Shown here: positions 6,739 to 54,825 of the stretch, one piece after another
Layout of the letters: each line of letters opens with the position of its first letter
How positions within the stretch are numbered: position 1 is the first letter of the stretch
IMG/VR virus record: IMGVR_UViG_3300049009_000874
Span: 64,001-128,000 of that record
Length of the DNA stretch: 64,000 nt
Direction: 5' to 3' (one strand)
Origin: a virus
Lineage: Duplodnaviria > Caudoviricetes
Position numbers and translations under genes: made by a program
The notes under the pieces: model-generated
What the model was told of the DNA's origin: nothing
The model's database searches: none
What the model saw: only the letters and a program-made list of their open reading frames with translations

Positions 6739-7776
6739 ATGAACAAAGACCCATATGAAGTTCTCGGTGTTTCCAGGGATGCCTCGTCTGACGACATACA
6801 GAAGTCGTACAGGTCCAAGGCTAAGCTACACCATCCGGACAGGAACATCGGCAATCCAGAATCCGAGCAGATGTTCCGAGAAGTCCAGGAAGCCTATGAC
6901 ATATTGAGCGATCCTGAGAAGAAATCCAAATACGACAGGTTCGGATTATCGGCTTCCAAGTGGTCTTCGGAATCAATGCACAACATGCATGACATCTTCG
7001 GGAAATCCACATACAAGGGAAGAAGCATACAGGCAAAGGTGTCTCTGACGCTCGAGGAAGTGGCTTCCGGCTGCGTGAAGAAGGTCAGGTTCCACAGGAG
7101 CAAGATATGTTCAAGGTGTTATGGGTCTGGCTCTTCGAAATCGGAAAAGTGCAAGCATTGCGACGGTCTAGGCTATCAGGGCGTCCATCTGCAGCCTAAT
7201 TTCAGTTTCCAGACAGAATGCCAGGCTTGCCTTGGTTCTGGGGTTTCAATTTTGGAAAAATGCGCGGAATGCAACGGCGGATACGAATCCAGGCAAGAAC
7301 CTTCGGAGTTCGACGTCAATCTTCCTCCGGGAATCTCTTCGGGTCACTTGAGGATTCCAGAGCAGGGCGAGCCATGCAAGAGGTCCGGAGGGTCCAACGG
7401 AGACCTGATGGTTTTCGTGGAGGTTCAGCACCACGAGATGTTCAAGAGGTATGACAGCAACCTGATCCTGGAGATACCATGTTCATACTCCCAGCTCGTC
7501 AATGGTTTCGATGTCGAAGTTCCCACGGTGTACAACCATAAAATTGTGGTCAAGATACCCAAGGAGACCATGCCTAACACTCAAATCAGGGTTAAGGGCA
7601 AGGGTCTTCCAGGCGGCTACGATGGAATTGGCGACATGTTCGTAATACCAAAGCTTGACATACCCAAGAACATGCCGGAAGAGTATTATCAAGTGCTTGA
7701 AAGGCTGAGGGTCATCGAAGACGGCAACATTACTCCGAGAAGGAAAGAGTGGAACAGAAAGCTTTCCAAATATTGA
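6739..7776 (+). CDS. dnaJ: DnaJ chaperone with zinc finger
   Basis: J-domain HPD, CxxCxGxG repeats, C-terminal substrate domain. Confidence 0.95.
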   Translation: MNKDPYEVLGVSRDASSDDIQKSYRSKAKLHHPDRNIGNPESEQMFREVQEAYDILSDPEKKSKYDRFGLSASKWSSESMHNMHDIFGKSTYKGRSIQAKVSLTLEEVASGCVKKVRFHRSKICSRCYGSGSSKSEKCKHCDGLGYQGVHLQPNFSFQTECQACLGSGVSILEKCAECNGGYESRQEPSEFDVNLPPGISSGHLRIPEQGEPCKRSGGSNGDLMVFVEVQHHEMFKRYDSNLILEIPCSYSQLVNGFDVEVPTVYNHKIVVKIPKETMPNTQIRVKGKGLPGGYDGIGDMFVIPKLDIPKNMPEEYYQVLERLRVIEDGNITPRRKEWNRKLSKY

Positions 7777-7805: not shown

Positions 7806-8009
7806 ATGAACAAAATAGTAGAAAACAAGTTATTCGTTCCGGCTGTCTTGGCTGTCGTGTCTTTGTTGTTCTTCCTGCTCTGCAACAAGGTGATGGTCGA
7901 AAAGGTTGCTGACAGGGTCATACAAAAGCTCCAGAGGGATTATGCCCCATCTCCATTCGCCCCTGGGTTTGACCCAGACAAGATAGACTCGAACAGATTC
8001 AAGAAATGA
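7806..8009 (+). CDS. Small membrane protein
   Basis: Single TM, AAGGTG RBS, ATACATA upstream. Confidence 0.65.
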   Translation: MNKIVENKLFVPAVLAVVSLLFFLLCNKVMVEKVADRVIQKLQRDYAPSPFAPGFDPDKIDSNRFKK

Positions 8010-8352
8010 CCCTGAAAGACTTGAGTACCATCGGCTGCGTGTGTTCGATGTCCGGGCTTCCCATGAACCCGAATTCGACCATCTGACCTTTTTCTGGCTT
8101 TTTCGGCAACCTTCTGTACTGGTCGTAAGTGCAGAATATCTTGGATTTGTCCTCGAATTGGATCACTATTGGGTTCGTGTTGTACTTGATCATGTGTATC
8201 TTTGATTTCTTGATTATCATCGGCATGTCAACGTCGATTTTCGGCATGAAAGGAATGTATTCCTTGACCCAGTCAAAGTTTTCGGGAAAGAACAGATTAT
8301 GGTCCATCGATAGCTCTTTTATCTTCAGGAATCTTTCGAACTTGGTTTTCAT
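7999..8352 (-). CDS. Hypothetical protein with capsid-targeting-like N-terminus
   Basis: MKTKFERFLKIKE; ATAGATA 5 nt before ATG. Confidence 0.7.
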   Translation of the reverse strand: MKTKFERFLKIKELSMDHNLFFPENFDWVKEYIPFMPKIDVDMPMIIKKSKIHMIKYNTNPIVIQFEDKSKIFCTYDQYRRLPKKPEKGQMVEFGFMGSPDIEHTQPMVLKSFRVIS

Positions 8353-49672: not shown

Positions 49673-50136
49673 GCATTTTCGAAAGCTCTGAACCAACGGG
49701 GAAAAGCGAACTCGAACGCATGGATATAAACACCTTCGTCGTCAAGAAAAGCAACGGCAACTGGGTGTTCGAGAAGGACGGGTCTTTCTACAGCTTCGCG
49801 CCCCCGATGTTCGCCGAGATGACTCTTTCCCCGGTTATATTCGGCGCAGACAAGTTGATAAACTACGGATGCAAATTCAAGGGCATGGTGGGATACGAGG
49901 ACGGGTTCAACCTTTTGGTCTCGTCTTCCTACTTCCCGGCGTGCGACATCAGGCTGACGTATGCCGAGCCATTCTATGACGGCTGGATATATGAAGTCGA
50001 CGGCGAGAACCTTAAGGGCTTCATGGAACAGCAGAAGACATGGATGTGTCCCTACCTCAAAATGTACTACGACAAGCCGCCGTTGAAGCTGTACCTCAAG
50101 ATGGAGTCAATCCCCGAAAACGGCGCACCAGTATAG
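49669..50136 (+). CDS. DUF6717-like protein
   Basis: WVF, GAD, GF.L..S..FP, GW.Y, WMCP.L.MYY..PP..LY. Confidence 0.6.
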   Translation: MSIFESSEPTGKSELERMDINTFVVKKSNGNWVFEKDGSFYSFAPPMFAEMTLSPVIFGADKLINYGCKFKGMVGYEDGFNLLVSSSYFPACDIRLTYAEPFYDGWIYEVDGENLKGFMEQQKTWMCPYLKMYYDKPPLKLYLKMESIPENGAPV

Positions 50137-50610
50137 GCTTCCGTCGGAGGCTTTGGAGACCCCGAAGCCAACCCTTCCGAAACTCCGGTTCATTATGTTT
50201 TCCCTGTGACCCTTTGAGTTCATCCAGGATTCCGTAACCTCATTTTCGTCTTCCTGGTTCCACGCTATGTTCTCGCCTACGGTGTGGAACTTCCCCAGAA
50301 GAACCCCTATATCCGAATGCTTCAGGTTTTTCTTCCGAGCCATCCAGTCCGAGTGATCCTGCGCGTAGCCCACAAGCGTCTTGTCCAGCTTTAGACCTGT
50401 CCTTCCCTTGTATTCCCTTTCCCTGTTGTGCGTCGCTAGTAGGTTGGTGTTTGTCGCCGAGAACTCGCTATCCGGGGCAGGAGGCGCCGGTATCGCTTCG
50501 TGATTCTTCGGAACTATGTCGGTCCACACGTCGACGTCTCTGGATGGGCATCCGGAGAGAAGAAGAATCACCAGTAAAAACCTAAACGTGCTTTTTAGCC
50601 GAATCGACAT
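50107..50610 (-). CDS. CAP (SCP) domain lipoprotein
   Basis: LLSGC lipobox; HN..R, AQ.HS..MA, GENIA, WMNS.GHR.NI, G.G. Confidence 0.9.
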   Translation of the reverse strand: MSIRLKSTFRFLLVILLLSGCPSRDVDVWTDIVPKNHEAIPAPPAPDSEFSATNTNLLATHNREREYKGRTGLKLDKTLVGYAQDHSDWMARKKNLKHSDIGVLLGKFHTVGENIAWNQEDENEVTESWMNSKGHRENIMNRSFGRVGFGVSKASDGSLYWCAVFGD

Positions 50611-50728
50611 GGACTTCCCGTTCCTTTTTCGACTCGAACGCAATATTCGTCGAATCTCATGTATGTCGCCCTTATTTGTTTCCGACAACATATATACATT
50701 TGCGTAAATCTTTTAGCACGGTGACAAA

Positions 50729-51124
50729 ATGGAATTCAAGAGTTTTTTAGAGTACGACATATCGAACGCCATCAAGAACATAGCCAAAACGTTCCGCTAC
50801 GGAACCTACTGCGGTCCGAACAAGACCGGGGATATAGTGTCCAAGCCCTGCAACGTGCACGACAGCGGCGATCCCCTGAAACCGCCAAAGGACAAGCTTG
50901 ATTCGCTTTGCATGAGCCATGACGTCGACTACTGCAAGTGCGGCGACGAATGGACCGCCGGACTATTGGGAAACAAGGGATCGGAATGCAGCCGGGAGGC
51001 GGACAAGAAGTTTATCGGCGACATACGCCAGAACATTGATTCCATGAGCCCCAAGGAGAAATTCGTAGCGAACCTCATATTGGCTTATTTCAGGATGCAC
51101 GGAAACCTGCAGAAAATCATCTAA
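50729..51124 (+). CDS. Phospholipase A2-like protein with capsid-targeting-like N-terminus
   Basis: YGTYCGP Ca-loop, DKLDSLCMSHDVDY catalytic HD, ADKKF; MEFKSFLE. Confidence 0.8.
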   Translation: MEFKSFLEYDISNAIKNIAKTFRYGTYCGPNKTGDIVSKPCNVHDSGDPLKPPKDKLDSLCMSHDVDYCKCGDEWTAGLLGNKGSECSREADKKFIGDIRQNIDSMSPKEKFVANLILAYFRMHGNLQKII

Positions 51125-51152: not shown

Positions 51153-51917
51153 ATGTCGATTCAAAACGATACATATGGCAGCCACCAGAAAGCCTACATA
51201 AAAATGGATCGGCACCTGGGCGATTCCCTGGTGTGCCTCAACCTCATCTACAGTTACCACGTCAAGAACAATGTCGGCGTGCGTGTCTTCGGCTCCGGCA
51301 CCGTCAAGGATCTTTTCGACCTGTTCGATTTCGGGGGGATGACCTTCGGGGGAGGCTGGTCCGATTCCGTTGAGCCAGAGATTTGCATCAACGAGTTCCT
51401 CTCGAGGGGGGCGAACCCGGAATCGACTTTTCTGAGGAATCGTCATATGCGGTTCGATAAAAAATTGGGGTTCGACCCGAAATGGATAGTTCTCCCCAAG
51501 TGCAGGATAAAACGATTCGGGTGCAACCACAACGTCTATTTCCAGTTCGACTCCAGGTCGCCGAGAAACCACGGGAAGAAACCGTTGACGCCGACCGAAT
51601 GTCGCATGATCCTGAGCCAGAGGTCCACGAGGAATCCGATAGCCATAGGCGGCAAGGACACAAGGATATACCTAGGAGGCTATATGTACCACCTCGGCGA
51701 CCTTTTCGGAATCTCGAAAAAACTCCTCGGCTGCAGGAAGTTCATAGGGGTTGACAGCGGCATGTCGCATTTGGCTGGCACTCTCGGGGTGAAGTCGGAA
51801 ATAATAAACATGCACAACATCAGATCTGTCGAGCGCGAACTCATGGATTTCTACCGGGAAATGTACCCTTCGACGGTCTCCTTCAGAAGGCAGGATCTGC
51901 TCTCCAAATTGATTTGA
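51153..51917 (+). CDS. GT9-like glycosyltransferase, paralog 2
   Basis: HLGDSL, FIGVDSGMSHLAGTLGV. Confidence 0.75.
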   Translation: MSIQNDTYGSHQKAYIKMDRHLGDSLVCLNLIYSYHVKNNVGVRVFGSGTVKDLFDLFDFGGMTFGGGWSDSVEPEICINEFLSRGANPESTFLRNRHMRFDKKLGFDPKWIVLPKCRIKRFGCNHNVYFQFDSRSPRNHGKKPLTPTECRMILSQRSTRNPIAIGGKDTRIYLGGYMYHLGDLFGISKKLLGCRKFIGVDSGMSHLAGTLGVKSEIINMHNIRSVERELMDFYREMYPSTVSFRRQDLLSKLI

Positions 51918-52430: not shown

Positions 52431-53252
52431 TCACTGGTCAAGGAAGACGGGACTCCTTATAATGTTCTCCCCGGTTCCTCCGCTTGTTTTATCTCCGATG
52501 TGTTGCACCAGAGACTCGACCGGCGAGAATATCATGCAATCGTTCATCATCGACCATTCCTTGACTATCATGTCGTAGGCGTTCAGAAAGTCGGGGCAAC
52601 TTGGCTCGACCTGCGTGGAACTCACCGAGTTGGTCACCTCCTCCATGAAATTCCTTATGTCTCTCAGAACCGACTTGGGATAGAATACCGCCTGGGTGCC
52701 AGCCCACGTCATCTTGGGAACCTGGAAGTAGTTCTTCGAAGACCTGCATTTGTTGTGCGACAGCAGGCTGAATATGTATTTTTCGTAACCGTCGTTCTCG
52801 ATCTCGTTCAGGCACACCAGCATCTTGCGGAACCAGTCGTTCTGGAAAACCACGTCATCCTCGAACACCAGGCTGTTCTCGTAATCCGAAACGCTCAGGC
52901 ATTTGATGTAATTGTAGCTAGCCATGAACTTCCTCGGGAATAACTTGAGGTTCGACCAGTTCTCCCTGTCCCAGCAGATTATACGGAGGTTCTTGTGGTG
53001 CTTGTATTTTTCGAGGTATCCCGACTGGTCGGAGGACACTATCAGGTTGATAAGGTAGTTGTTTGGCATGCCGCCGAGAAGCATGCTCGCTAGCGTGCTG
53101 TGGACATATCCTTCCGGTCTGTCTACTGTCGAGACCACCACGTTCATCCTCAATTGGGACGACAAGGACTTTGGCGTGAAGTCGGCGTCAGCCAATCCTT
53201 CCGGAAGGCTGACCCTGACCTTGCAATCCATCCTCTTAGGTTTGATCAACAT
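52431..53252 (-). CDS. GT-A glycosyltransferase (GT25/GT54-like)
   Basis: STV.R..Y...TL.S, VFEDDV, SLVQHIG. Confidence 0.7.
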   Translation of the reverse strand: MLIKPKRMDCKVRVSLPEGLADADFTPKSLSSQLRMNVVVSTVDRPEGYVHSTLASMLLGGMPNNYLINLIVSSDQSGYLEKYKHHKNLRIICWDRENWSNLKLFPRKFMASYNYIKCLSVSDYENSLVFEDDVVFQNDWFRKMLVCLNEIENDGYEKYIFSLLSHNKCRSSKNYFQVPKMTWAGTQAVFYPKSVLRDIRNFMEEVTNSVSSTQVEPSCPDFLNAYDMIVKEWSMMNDCMIFSPVESLVQHIGDKTSGGTGENIIRSPVFLDQ

Positions 53253-53269
53253 GCATATAATCTAGTCAG

Positions 53270-53656
53270 TTACTTGAGGTTTTTGAGCTTGTAAATGGTT
53301 TGGTAGGTCAAAGCCATAATCTCGTCGAGTATGTTGTGGAGGTGGGTGTCGTCTTGGTCGAGTCTTTTCCTTCCATCCTTGACGCTGTCGGCGAAACCTT
53401 CCATGTATTCCAGTATGTCCTTGGACTCGAGGATGCAAGAGTTATAGCCGGAAATGATGCCGTACTGACCCTGGTACGTCTCCACGAAGGTGTCCGCGAG
53501 ACCAAGGATCCCATCGTAGAAAGAGCCAAGAGCATTGTGCTCCGCGTAGCTCTTGGTCTGAAGGTGAGCCACGTGAGCCACGTTTCTGGCTTCGAAAAAC
53601 TTTGCCACAAGGTCTTTGACCTTGCTTCCCGACCTGAACTCGTTGATGCTTTTCAT
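53270..53656 (-). CDS. Ferritin-like DUF5856-type protein
   Basis: HVAHLQT.SYAEH.AL..FYD...D.FVE.YQG, L.NI.DE...YKL..L; ATACATA upstream. Confidence 0.8.
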   Translation of the reverse strand: MKSINEFRSGSKVKDLVAKFFEARNVAHVAHLQTKSYAEHNALGSFYDGILGLADTFVETYQGQYGIISGYNSCILESKDILEYMEGFADSVKDGRKRLDQDDTHLHNILDEIMALTYQTIYKLKNLK

Positions 53657-53721
53657 GTTGATTTTTCCTCGGTTTGGATTTAATGTATGTATTCGTCCAC
53701 GAATTTTTTTTAGGGGCAAAC

Positions 53722-54825
53722 ATGAACTGGATAGCGCCAATATTGACCGTTGTTGGCTTGGGCGTCGGATTTTGGGCTGTGGTGAGGTACATAGTCCTTT
53801 TCGACCTAAGGGTCGACAACAACACTTTCAGGACGATATACGAGTTGATCGAGAAGGAGGGGCAGTTCGTCATCGAGGAGGAGTTCTTCTCGGAGAAAAG
53901 GCATCCCGTGGTCTACAAGTCCATATGCTTCATGGAAGGAGTGCCGTGGTTCTACATCGCTCACTCCGAGAGGCTCTTGCAAGCCGGCTTCCAGGGCAAA
54001 GACCTTGTCACATCCATAACCTGCTTCAGGTGGAACCACTCGAAAATCAAGCGTTTCCTGTCCGAAAAACTGAAGTCCATGCAGCTCTCCACGTTCGGAG
54101 TCCCGGTCAGGGTCGCTTCGCCATGGCAGACAGACAAGATCGGCTCGATAAAGACCGCCGACAATCCAGTCGTCGACGAGTCTCTGTGGCTTGATTTCTG
54201 CGAGGAGGTCGGGGAGGTGGCAAGGGGAGTATTGCCGAAGACCGGGGCGATACTCTACGGCGACCCCGGCAACGGAAAGACTTCTCTGGTCAAGTATCTC
54301 GCGGTGAAATACCAGATGCCCATAACGATAATAACGTTCGTGCCGGAATTCACGAACATGGACATCATGTTCATGTTCTCGCAGATAGGAAACAACTGCA
54401 TCGTGCTTCTGGAGGATTTCGACAACTACTTCGACAAGAGAAGGTGCATAATAGGCGAGAGCGGGCAGGGCGGCAACAACATGGGCATAAAATTCACATT
54501 CGATTCTATACTCAATTGCCTGGACGGGGTCTACAACAACTATGAGGGCGTCGTCTTCATCATGACCGCCAACGACATAGGCAAGATAGACGACTCGCTC
54601 AAGAACAGACCCAGCAGATTCAAGTACGTGAGGAACTTCTCCAACCCGTCGCCAGTCGTGAGGGAGAATCTCATAGGGGAATGGTCTCGGCATTTCGGCG
54701 GGTTGAACCTGGACCAGATCATGAGGGTGAGGGAATGCAAGACCAACGGCATGACGGTCAACGAAGCCAAGTCGAAGATCAATTTCGAGGCGGTCCAAGA
54801 CCGTGAGGTCACGAGTGAGACCTAG
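53722..54825 (+). CDS. Membrane-anchored BCS1-like AAA ATPase
   Basis: N-terminal TM; GDPGNGKTS, LLEDFD, LNCLDG, MTAN, RPSRF. Confidence 0.85.
   Translation: MNWIAPILTVVGLGVGFWAVVRYIVLFDLRVDNNTFRTIYELIEKEGQFVIEEEFFSEKRHPVVYKSICFMEGVPWFYIAHSERLLQAGFQGKDLVTSITCFRWNHSKIKRFLSEKLKSMQLSTFGVPVRVASPWQTDKIGSIKTADNPVVDESLWLDFCEEVGEVARGVLPKTGAILYGDPGNGKTSLVKYLAVKYQMPITIITFVPEFTNMDIMFMFSQIGNNCIVLLEDFDNYFDKRRCIIGESGQGGNNMGIKFTFDSILNCLDGVYNNYEGVVFIMTANDIGKIDDSLKNRPSRFKYVRNFSNPSPVVRENLIGEWSRHFGGLNLDQIMRVRECKTNGMTVNEAKSKINFEAVQDREVTSET

Follow-up and report, generated by a model that had tools for sequence, protein, structure and literature searches.

How could a protein that resembles a secreted phospholipase serve a tailed phage when it carries no signal peptide? 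The question is raised by a single small gene in the stretch of viral DNA analysed here (the window: 64,000 nucleotides, positions 64,001 to 128,000 of the IMG/VR record IMGVR_UViG_3300049009_000874; Duplodnaviria, Caudoviricetes), which an initial annotation, made from the letters alone, had described as a phage phospholipase A2 (PLA2) with a capsid-targeting-like peptide in place of a signal peptide. As judged from its relatives, the gene encodes a small PLA2-type protein of the parvovirus-type PLA2-like superfamily, which we predict to be a calcium-dependent lipid hydrolase. The complete record is 189,229 bp long, with a CheckV completeness estimate of 39%. Its large open reading frames (ORFs) match phage polymerase and helicase, and the nearest relative of its DnaE-type polymerase (49%) belongs to a 595-kb uncultured huge phage; we therefore take the record to be a fragment of a huge-phage genome.

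The ORF lies where it had been annotated (Table 1), and every motif that had been listed can be read in its 131-residue translation: M1-E-F-K-S-F-L-E8, Y24-G-T-Y-C-G-P30, L57-D58-S-L-C61-M-S-H64-D65-V-D-Y68 and A91-D92-K-K-F95. It is a genuine gene under purifying selection: comparison with a 76%-identical homologue gives pS of 0.92 (synonymous sites saturated) and pN of 0.14, and two closer copies of the gene give dN/dS of 0.18. Three clusters of close homologues share 76–81% identity with the window protein over lengths of 131–139 residues, and the cluster formed around it at 90% holds 13 variants, which are spread over about 100 contigs and all lack a functional name. Searches with tblastn among 50,697 GenBank phages returned no match to the window protein or to a consensus-like member of its family (P0009), the only phage-family match of the protein was phrog_11353, to which no function is assigned, and our literature search found no paper linking PLA2 with jumbo or huge phages.

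Membership in the PLA2 superfamily is carried by the wider family. When 1.84 billion representatives were searched exhaustively with HMMER, 35 metagenomic clusters were retrieved at E ≤ 1e-3, 21 of them at E ≤ 1e-10, with a best E of 1.5e-23. In an alignment of 24 sequences, Y24, G25, C28, G29, P30, D58, C61, H64, D65, Y68, D92 and F121 are invariant and A91 is nearly so. By alignment, this invariant set minus F121 is the calcium loop, the His-Asp pair, the Tyr, the distal Asp, the cysteine pair joining loop and helix, and D58. With relatives reaching E 1.5e-23, invariant residues and purifying selection, the motif matches exceed what chance would produce. The Pfam model for the parvovirus-type PLA2-like domain (PF08398, Phospholip_A2_4; gathering cut-off 23.9 bits) is matched by all 24 aligned members, with a best E of 2.9e-8, and eight of ten tested relatives exceed the cut-off, at 25–34 bits. 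The window protein sits on a divergent branch of the family, and its own place in the superfamily is given by transitive homology through the relatives that pass PF08398. No match to PF07087 (the DUF1353 or TtaP family) appears in it at E up to 1, nor does it contain a MuF head domain.

The family alignment was used to build an AlphaFold2 model, which has a mean predicted local distance difference test score (pLDDT) of 82.5 and a predicted template modelling score of 0.76, with pLDDT above 90 in the two core helices and 55–61 for residues 1–20. A search of 48,161 chains, independent of Foldseek, placed a rice secreted PLA2 first (Z 7.0, root-mean-square deviation 2.9 Å over 87 residues, 28% identity), followed by unrelated helical proteins at 3–13% identity. 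In a second structural look the three rice PLA2 entries (PDB 2wg7, 2wg8 and 2wg9), which are the best solved-structure match of the window protein, scored Z 7.3–7.9, about 3 units above the next unrelated rows, and snake PLA2s aligned at about 30% identity over 68–70 residues; across the structural searches, identity to rice PLA2 ranged from 26 to 28%. Within a library of viral protein models, most of the named matches among the top 50 were parvovirus or densovirus VP1, the best at a match probability of 0.9–1.0. Because the modest Z scores (below 8) are joined by high aligned identity and by invariant catalytic motifs, the model supports a PLA2 fold for the window protein. The relationship to PLA2 proposed at the outset is thus borne out by profile matches of relatives, by fold and by invariant catalytic residues, and the likeness is specifically to the parvovirus-type PF08398 domain.

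The cysteines of the family bear on where such a protein could mature. C28 and C61, present in all 24 sequences, lie at the positions of what we take to be the conserved C29–C45 bridge of secreted PLA2s. C41 and C69 occur together in 21 sequences, are jointly lost in two and disagree in one, which has a cysteine four residues off; for C71 and C87 the counts are 20 with both, four with neither and none discordant. Since the six cysteines are kept or lost as pairs, as disulfide partners are, three disulfides are implied (C28–C61, C41–C69 and C71–C87), and a disulfide-stabilised calcium-loop enzyme should stay immature in the cytoplasm, which is reducing and low in calcium. That a signal peptide is missing was correctly annotated: by inspection, residues 1–23 form a polar, amphipathic stretch that has no hydrophobic core. 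Because disulfides are implied yet no signal peptide is present, the protein would need another route to an oxidising place, and the candidates are the virion in oxygenated water after its release, or the periplasm once the envelope has been opened.

Residues 1–10 offer a possible route. Whether homologues keep the N-terminal peptide had been proposed as a check, and about 21 of 33 representatives do, in the form M-x-F-[KRS]-x-[WFY]-[LIF], which is separated from the domain by a linker of 4–55 residues; homology across the family begins at about residue 21–23. In several members the arrangement is minimal, with no more than 2–3 residues separating the loop Tyr from the Glu that closes the tag (for example, FKEWLQANE-NWYGTYCGP). 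We considered whether residues 1–23 might instead be the first helix of the secreted-PLA2 fold. The calcium-loop Tyr falls at position 24, against 25 in the group I/II enzymes, a sub-threshold match to PF00068 (animal group I/II PLA2) aligns residues 16–45 with profile positions 15–47, and the model predicts a helix at residues 3–21. That helix is of low confidence, however, the peptide stands at distances of 4–55 residues from the domain in homologues, several of which leave just 2–3 residues between Glu and loop, and unrelated proteins begin with the same peptide. We give almost no credence to this explanation, and as a full account of residues 1–23 we rejected it on the variable distance.

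The peptide recurs well beyond the PLA2 family. At protein starts in the source genome, the pattern M-x-F-K-x-[WF]-L occurs in 12 of the 234 crude gene calls, where its internal frequency would predict 0.55 (about 22-fold enrichment); some five further copies stand at likely alternative starts, and an array of nine paralogous genes is tagged too. Around the PLA2 homologue of a 381-kb phage (L012), 9 of 24 genes are tagged, including a poly(A)-polymerase-type nucleotidyltransferase and a P-loop kinase. Other tagged proteins have ankyrin, GP88 or RelA/SpoT-like domains, the last below its Pfam cut-off; a Pfam search of ten tagged proteins found only the GP88 and ankyrin domains, and the GP88 protein matched only unannotated phage genes by tblastn. 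Synonymous variation among the tag codons indicates that selection acts at the level of the peptide. By these sequence comparisons, the N-terminal peptide is a separate module carried by many unrelated proteins of these phages. Most tags run on to a hydrophobic-x-Glu motif (VNE, LQE, LAE, IKE, IDE) that resembles the sites cleaved by gp21 of T4.

The closest precedent comes from phage T4, where the first 10 residues of IPIII form a capsid-targeting sequence: positions 4 and 7 serve targeting, positions 8 and 10 serve processing, and Asp at position 10 stops processing but not targeting (PMC9026906). The giant phages SPN3US and phiKZ carry many packed ejection proteins, processed at A/S-x-Glu (PMC5694885). 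Like the T4 sequence (on IPI–III and Alt), the huge-phage tag is an N-terminal peptide of about 10 residues on unrelated proteins, with two aromatics three apart, an aliphatic residue and then, in most tags, x-hydrophobic-x-Glu. It differs in its consensus, F-K-x-W-L, and in the far larger number of tagged genes; moreover, the tag of the window protein lacks a canonical cleavage site, and the tag is known here from sequence, unlike its T4 counterpart. By this analogy it is plausible that the tag loads the PLA2 into the head.

The reading we favour, to which we assign somewhat less than an even chance, is that the gene encodes an active, calcium-dependent, disulfide-stabilised PLA2 delivered from the phage head. 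The short amphipathic N-terminal tag would load it into the assembling head in the manner of the T4 capsid-targeting sequence, and at infection it would leave the head with the ejected proteins and cut phospholipids of the host envelope, aiding genome delivery or early takeover. Here we infer enzymatic activity, packaging and cleavage, as well as the time and place of action.

Several results weigh against this reading, some of them bearing on the enzyme and others on the head. The window protein scores below the Pfam cut-offs, with 14.5 bits (E 0.045) for PF08398, or 12.9 bits in the genome search, and 14.1 bits against the 32.1 required for PF00068. The low PF08398 score reflects the divergence of its clade, in which GPNK replaces the family's GPGP, a main cause of the shortfall. 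In the calcium loop itself, the window protein reads Y27-C-G-P-N31 against YCGPG in the family (consensus YGNYCGPGP); Tyr, Gly and Pro are invariant, and the last Gly is Asn in the window clade. Foldseek against the PDB gave nothing at E ≤ 0.001, though secreted PLA2s topped the listing, and single-sequence and profile searches of PDB sequences found no significant PLA2 (rice PLA2 at E of about 4). Could the protein then be a weak or inactive PLA2-like module that serves as a lipid or membrane binder? The Asn in place of the second calcium-loop Gly and the two sub-threshold scores are what such a module might show, and Lys49 homologues of snake PLA2 are inactive yet membrane-active. Against this, H64, D65, Y68, D92 and the remainder of the loop stay invariant in a family with 30–45% identity, and the VP1 of AAV2, which is active, likewise lacks a Gly at this loop position. 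We consider a non-enzymatic role very unlikely.

For the head, no capsid, portal or prohead-protease gene was detected: neither the T4 prohead protease (PF03420) nor gp23 (PF07068) was matched in the source fragment, which is 39% complete, and these models matched no control genome either; PF03420 was likewise unmatched in a 79%-complete, 381-kb relative (G001) and in one of 173 kb, again with no control matched. Terminase (PF03237) was not found in the 39%-complete source fragment. The window protein's own tag continues as F6-L7-E8-Y9-D10 into a 12-residue helical linker, without hydrophobic-x-Glu, and it may be targeted without processing, or cut at E8. If about one gene in ten is tagged, the implied head cargo is very large. 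Finally, no structural or lysis gene was recognised beside the PLA2 gene in the contexts scanned, where its neighbours are accessory and replication genes.

These features invite the alternative that the tag is a label for sorting or regulation unrelated to the capsid, be it delivery to a compartment built by the phage, export by a phage-specific route or controlled turnover, and that the PLA2 would reach membranes in this way. The peptide is found on at least 12 of 234 genes here and on 9 of 24 around the homologue in L012, exceeding known sets of head cargo, and head genes have not been tied to it. In addition, the tag follows the PLA2 domain in three relatives (P0022, P0029 and P0023), lying in P0023 between PLA2 and NUDIX domains in one reading frame. 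That order suggests either polyprotein-like chains of cargo or fused gene calls: it would fit cutting of the polyprotein type and is also a caution, and internal tags suit polyprotein-style processing in the head equally well. Because the pattern, the position and the hydrophobic-x-Glu all match the logic of the T4 sequence, and because the tag is too polar for Sec or Tat, we hold a label of another kind to be improbable.

The surroundings of the gene bear on a further explanation, namely that the PLA2 acts late. It would lie inert in the reduced, calcium-starved cytoplasm until holin and endolysin open the envelope, and would then oxidise in the periplasm, degrade outer-membrane phospholipids and complete lysis, perhaps with the neighbouring lipoprotein. 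A protein without a signal peptide that requires disulfides and calcium suits release at lysis just as well as release from a virion, and TtaP, a prophage-related PLA2 that also lacks a signal sequence, is enzymatically active (PMC11525133). The divergent neighbour was rightly named a CAP-domain lipoprotein: it matches PF00188 at E 7.7e-18 and has a lipobox signal peptide, MSIRLKSTFRFLLVILLLSGC (ending LLLSGC). Its start is most likely at 50610 rather than 50691, since its homologues in two other phages open with the signal peptide. In L012 a CAP gene (42% identical, E 3e-41) again stands beside the PLA2 gene (41% identical), in the same divergent arrangement, which favours a role at lysis. 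In a further genome (G002), however, the two genes are 140 kb apart, and in both adjacent cases CAP is divergently transcribed. Nor were lysozyme (PF00959) or amidase (PF01510) found in the source fragment, and neither was recognised among the scanned neighbours of related contexts; the tag is common to nucleotide-directed enzymes without a lysis role, and the window protein is not a member of DUF1353. We judge late envelope breaking to be unlikely.

The link to the CAP gene that had been annotated is weak: the divergent pairing is real here and in L012, but the genes are not linked in three other contexts or in G002. An obligate CAP–PLA2 pair was accordingly rejected, with adjacency confined to the source genome (G000) and L012, absent from the L009, L013/L031 and L027 groups, and replaced in G002 by the 140-kb separation; on gene order, the link would be facultative at best. 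In L013 and L031 the PLA2 gene lies between a conserved gene of 186 residues and a DnaB-type helicase, where G000 has a different gene of 288 codons; in the L009 group it adjoins arrays of HNH/AP2 endonucleases, and L027 provides another setting. As it occupies different sites in related phages, the PLA2 gene behaves as a movable accessory gene. The CAP lipoprotein is kept in three huge phages (the window, 50107–50610(−); L012, 7215–7694(−); L033, 1492–1917(−)). In the closest relatives, L009 (10670–12535(−)) and L024 (5923–7040(−)), the PLA2 gene is followed immediately downstream by tandem HNH/AP2-type endonuclease paralogues, which are homologous to the array at 181.9–184.2 kb of G000.

How does the protein compare with known phospholipases? 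With the VP1 PLA2 of parvoviruses and densoviruses (PF08398) it shares the YxGPx loop, the helix P-x-[ND]-x-x-D-x-x-[AC]-x-x-H-D-x-x-Y and a distal Asp; both are virus-encoded without a signal peptide, the relatives of the window protein pass PF08398, and its best viral structural matches are VP1. Unlike VP1, the phage protein is free-standing, with 131 residues, is not part of a capsid protein, belongs to a huge tailed phage, has an N-terminal tag and scores below the Pfam cut-off. It also carries three putative disulfides, which to our knowledge parvoviral PLA2 domains lack, and is known here from its gene, whereas the parvoviral domain is capsid-borne. The rice secreted PLA2 (PDB 2wg7, 2wg8, 2wg9) and the animal group I/II enzymes (PF00068) share with it the YCG loop, the C28–C61 pair and the HD..Y motif; plant and animal secreted PLA2s differ in having a signal peptide, five to eight disulfides rather than the three predicted here, and a shorter loop between calcium loop and catalytic helix. 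TtaP and the prophage DUF1353 PLA2s resemble it in small size, lack of a signal sequence and phage ancestry, with activity shown for TtaP (PMC11525133). The window protein is nevertheless of a different family (no PF07087), and TtaP lacks the cysteines and has no described N-terminal tag. This kind of PLA2 domain is already known; what appears to be new, by sequence, is a free-standing tailed-phage form with three probable disulfides and a portable tag, which is neither a canonical secreted PLA2 nor a member of the DUF1353/TtaP group.

Virion-borne lipases are established for parvoviruses, and we know of none in tailed phages, whose entry is thought to depend on tail machines and wall-degrading enzymes. 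A small, readily expressed PLA2 with a recognisable tag is a test case twice over: for whether the recurrent huge-phage tag means packing into the head, and for lipid hydrolysis at phage entry. A wider proposal, which we put forward tentatively and regard as doubtful, is that huge tailed phages pack a disulfide-locked PLA2 by means of a portable tag and eject it onto host envelope lipids. It would be the phage counterpart of the parvovirus VP1 lipase within an injected enzyme set that could be read from sequence, with the CAP lipoprotein as a periplasmic guard for self-protection or superinfection exclusion.

Other architectures of the domain are consistent, by analogy, with a delivered lipase here, in that a carrier would deliver the PLA2 module to a target membrane in those systems. 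One relative (P0033; 808 residues, on a 3.1-kb contig) has a Phage_Mu_F head domain (E 3.6e-14) followed by a PLA2 domain (27.4 bits) and further regions. MuF proteins, which are located at the portal within the capsid, are known to carry toxin domains (PMC5576092); that account describes no PLA2 payload, with 'phospholipase' confined to its reference list and 'PLA2' and 'lipase' nowhere in it. P0033 shares with the MuF polymorphic toxins of temperate phages the architecture of capsid-borne swappable toxins (PMC5576092), unlike the window protein, which has no MuF domain. Two more relatives (P0036 and P0038) have RHS-family Pfam matches, and a third (P0037) has an Rhs-core motif seen by eye only. 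By sequence, the family connects proteins of phages with MuF head-protein fusions, with the tips of Rhs toxins and with the capsid proteins of small viruses, and these links suggest a membrane-attacking module swapped among very different delivery systems.

Some further observations concern these carriers. The parts of P0033 are separated by three copies of DCGTGAGGFKPGNTCAKGG, giving the look of a multi-payload head protein. Five small viral contigs (L014, L018, L019, L021 and L023) place a PLA2 domain at the N-terminus of capsid-like proteins, and in L021 the domain comes directly after a region resembling an RNA-dependent RNA polymerase. Distinct from the phage PLA2 family are proteins of 830–960 residues on viral contigs of 39–180 kb (L015, L017, L020 and L022; matches near 8001–8213), which have a signal peptide, long Pro/Ala/Lys repeats, a cysteine-rich core resembling secreted PLA2 and a C-terminal coiled coil.

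Upstream of the PLA2 gene, the ATATATA element that had been annotated is present, 39 nt before the ATG. It is one copy of a more general motif, ATA[GT]ATA, which occurs 51 times in the genome, 22 of them within 60 nt upstream of same-strand starts and often 6–12 nt from an ATG without a Shine-Dalgarno sequence; other copies include 8364–8358(−) and 57545–57539(−). Eight of the 22 start-proximal copies precede tag-like N-termini, by a looser pattern than that used for the count of 12 in 234. From its placement, the motif looks like a phage-specific promoter that would give near-leaderless transcripts and that is not restricted to tagged genes.

Table 1. Positions of the PLA2-like gene, its parts and its upstream neighbourhood in the window
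Feature	Position	Strand	Remarks
PLA2-like gene	50729..51124	+	131 codons and stop; basis: ORF list, relatives at E 1.5e-23, purifying selection, model pLDDT 82.5
N-terminal tag MEFKSFLEYD, residues 1–10, apparently a detachable shared peptide	50729..50758	+	in about 21 of 33 representatives; on 12 of the 234 genes of the genome
Linker, residues 11–22, predicted helix of low confidence	50759..50794	+	pLDDT 55–61 for residues 1–20; conserved only in the closest clade
Putative calcium-binding-loop motif, Y24-G-T-Y-C-G-P-N-K32	50798..50824	+	Y24, G25, C28, G29, P30 invariant; N31 in the clade for family Gly
Predicted catalytic helix, L57-D58..C61..H64-D65..Y68-C69-K-C71	50897..50941	+	D58, C61, H64, D65, Y68 invariant; helix 56–71 with pLDDT > 90
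Second core helix, residues 86–105, with C87, A91, D92, F95	50984..51043	+	D92 invariant; C87 kept or lost along with C71
ATATATA upstream element, one ATA[GT]ATA copy	50690..50696	+	22 of the 51 copies in the genome stand ≤ 60 nt before a same-strand start
Divergent intergenic region between CAP and PLA2 genes	50611..50728	.	118 nt; CAP start set by homologues
CAP-domain lipoprotein gene, divergent neighbour and no more than a possible partner	50107..50610	-	PF00188 E 7.7e-18

The remaining observations concern genes close to the PLA2 and CAP genes. The flanking genes at 51153–51917(+), 52431–53252(−) and 53270–53740(−) show weak GT9-like and GT25-like matches (E of about 0.02) and a DUF5856 ferritin/Dps-like match (E 1.2e-21). 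A GT25 gene adjoins the CAP gene in L012 as well. In L009, a lipoprotein with a peptidase C39 domain (6782–7462(−); E 6e-13) is encoded 2.5 kb upstream of the PLA2 homologue.

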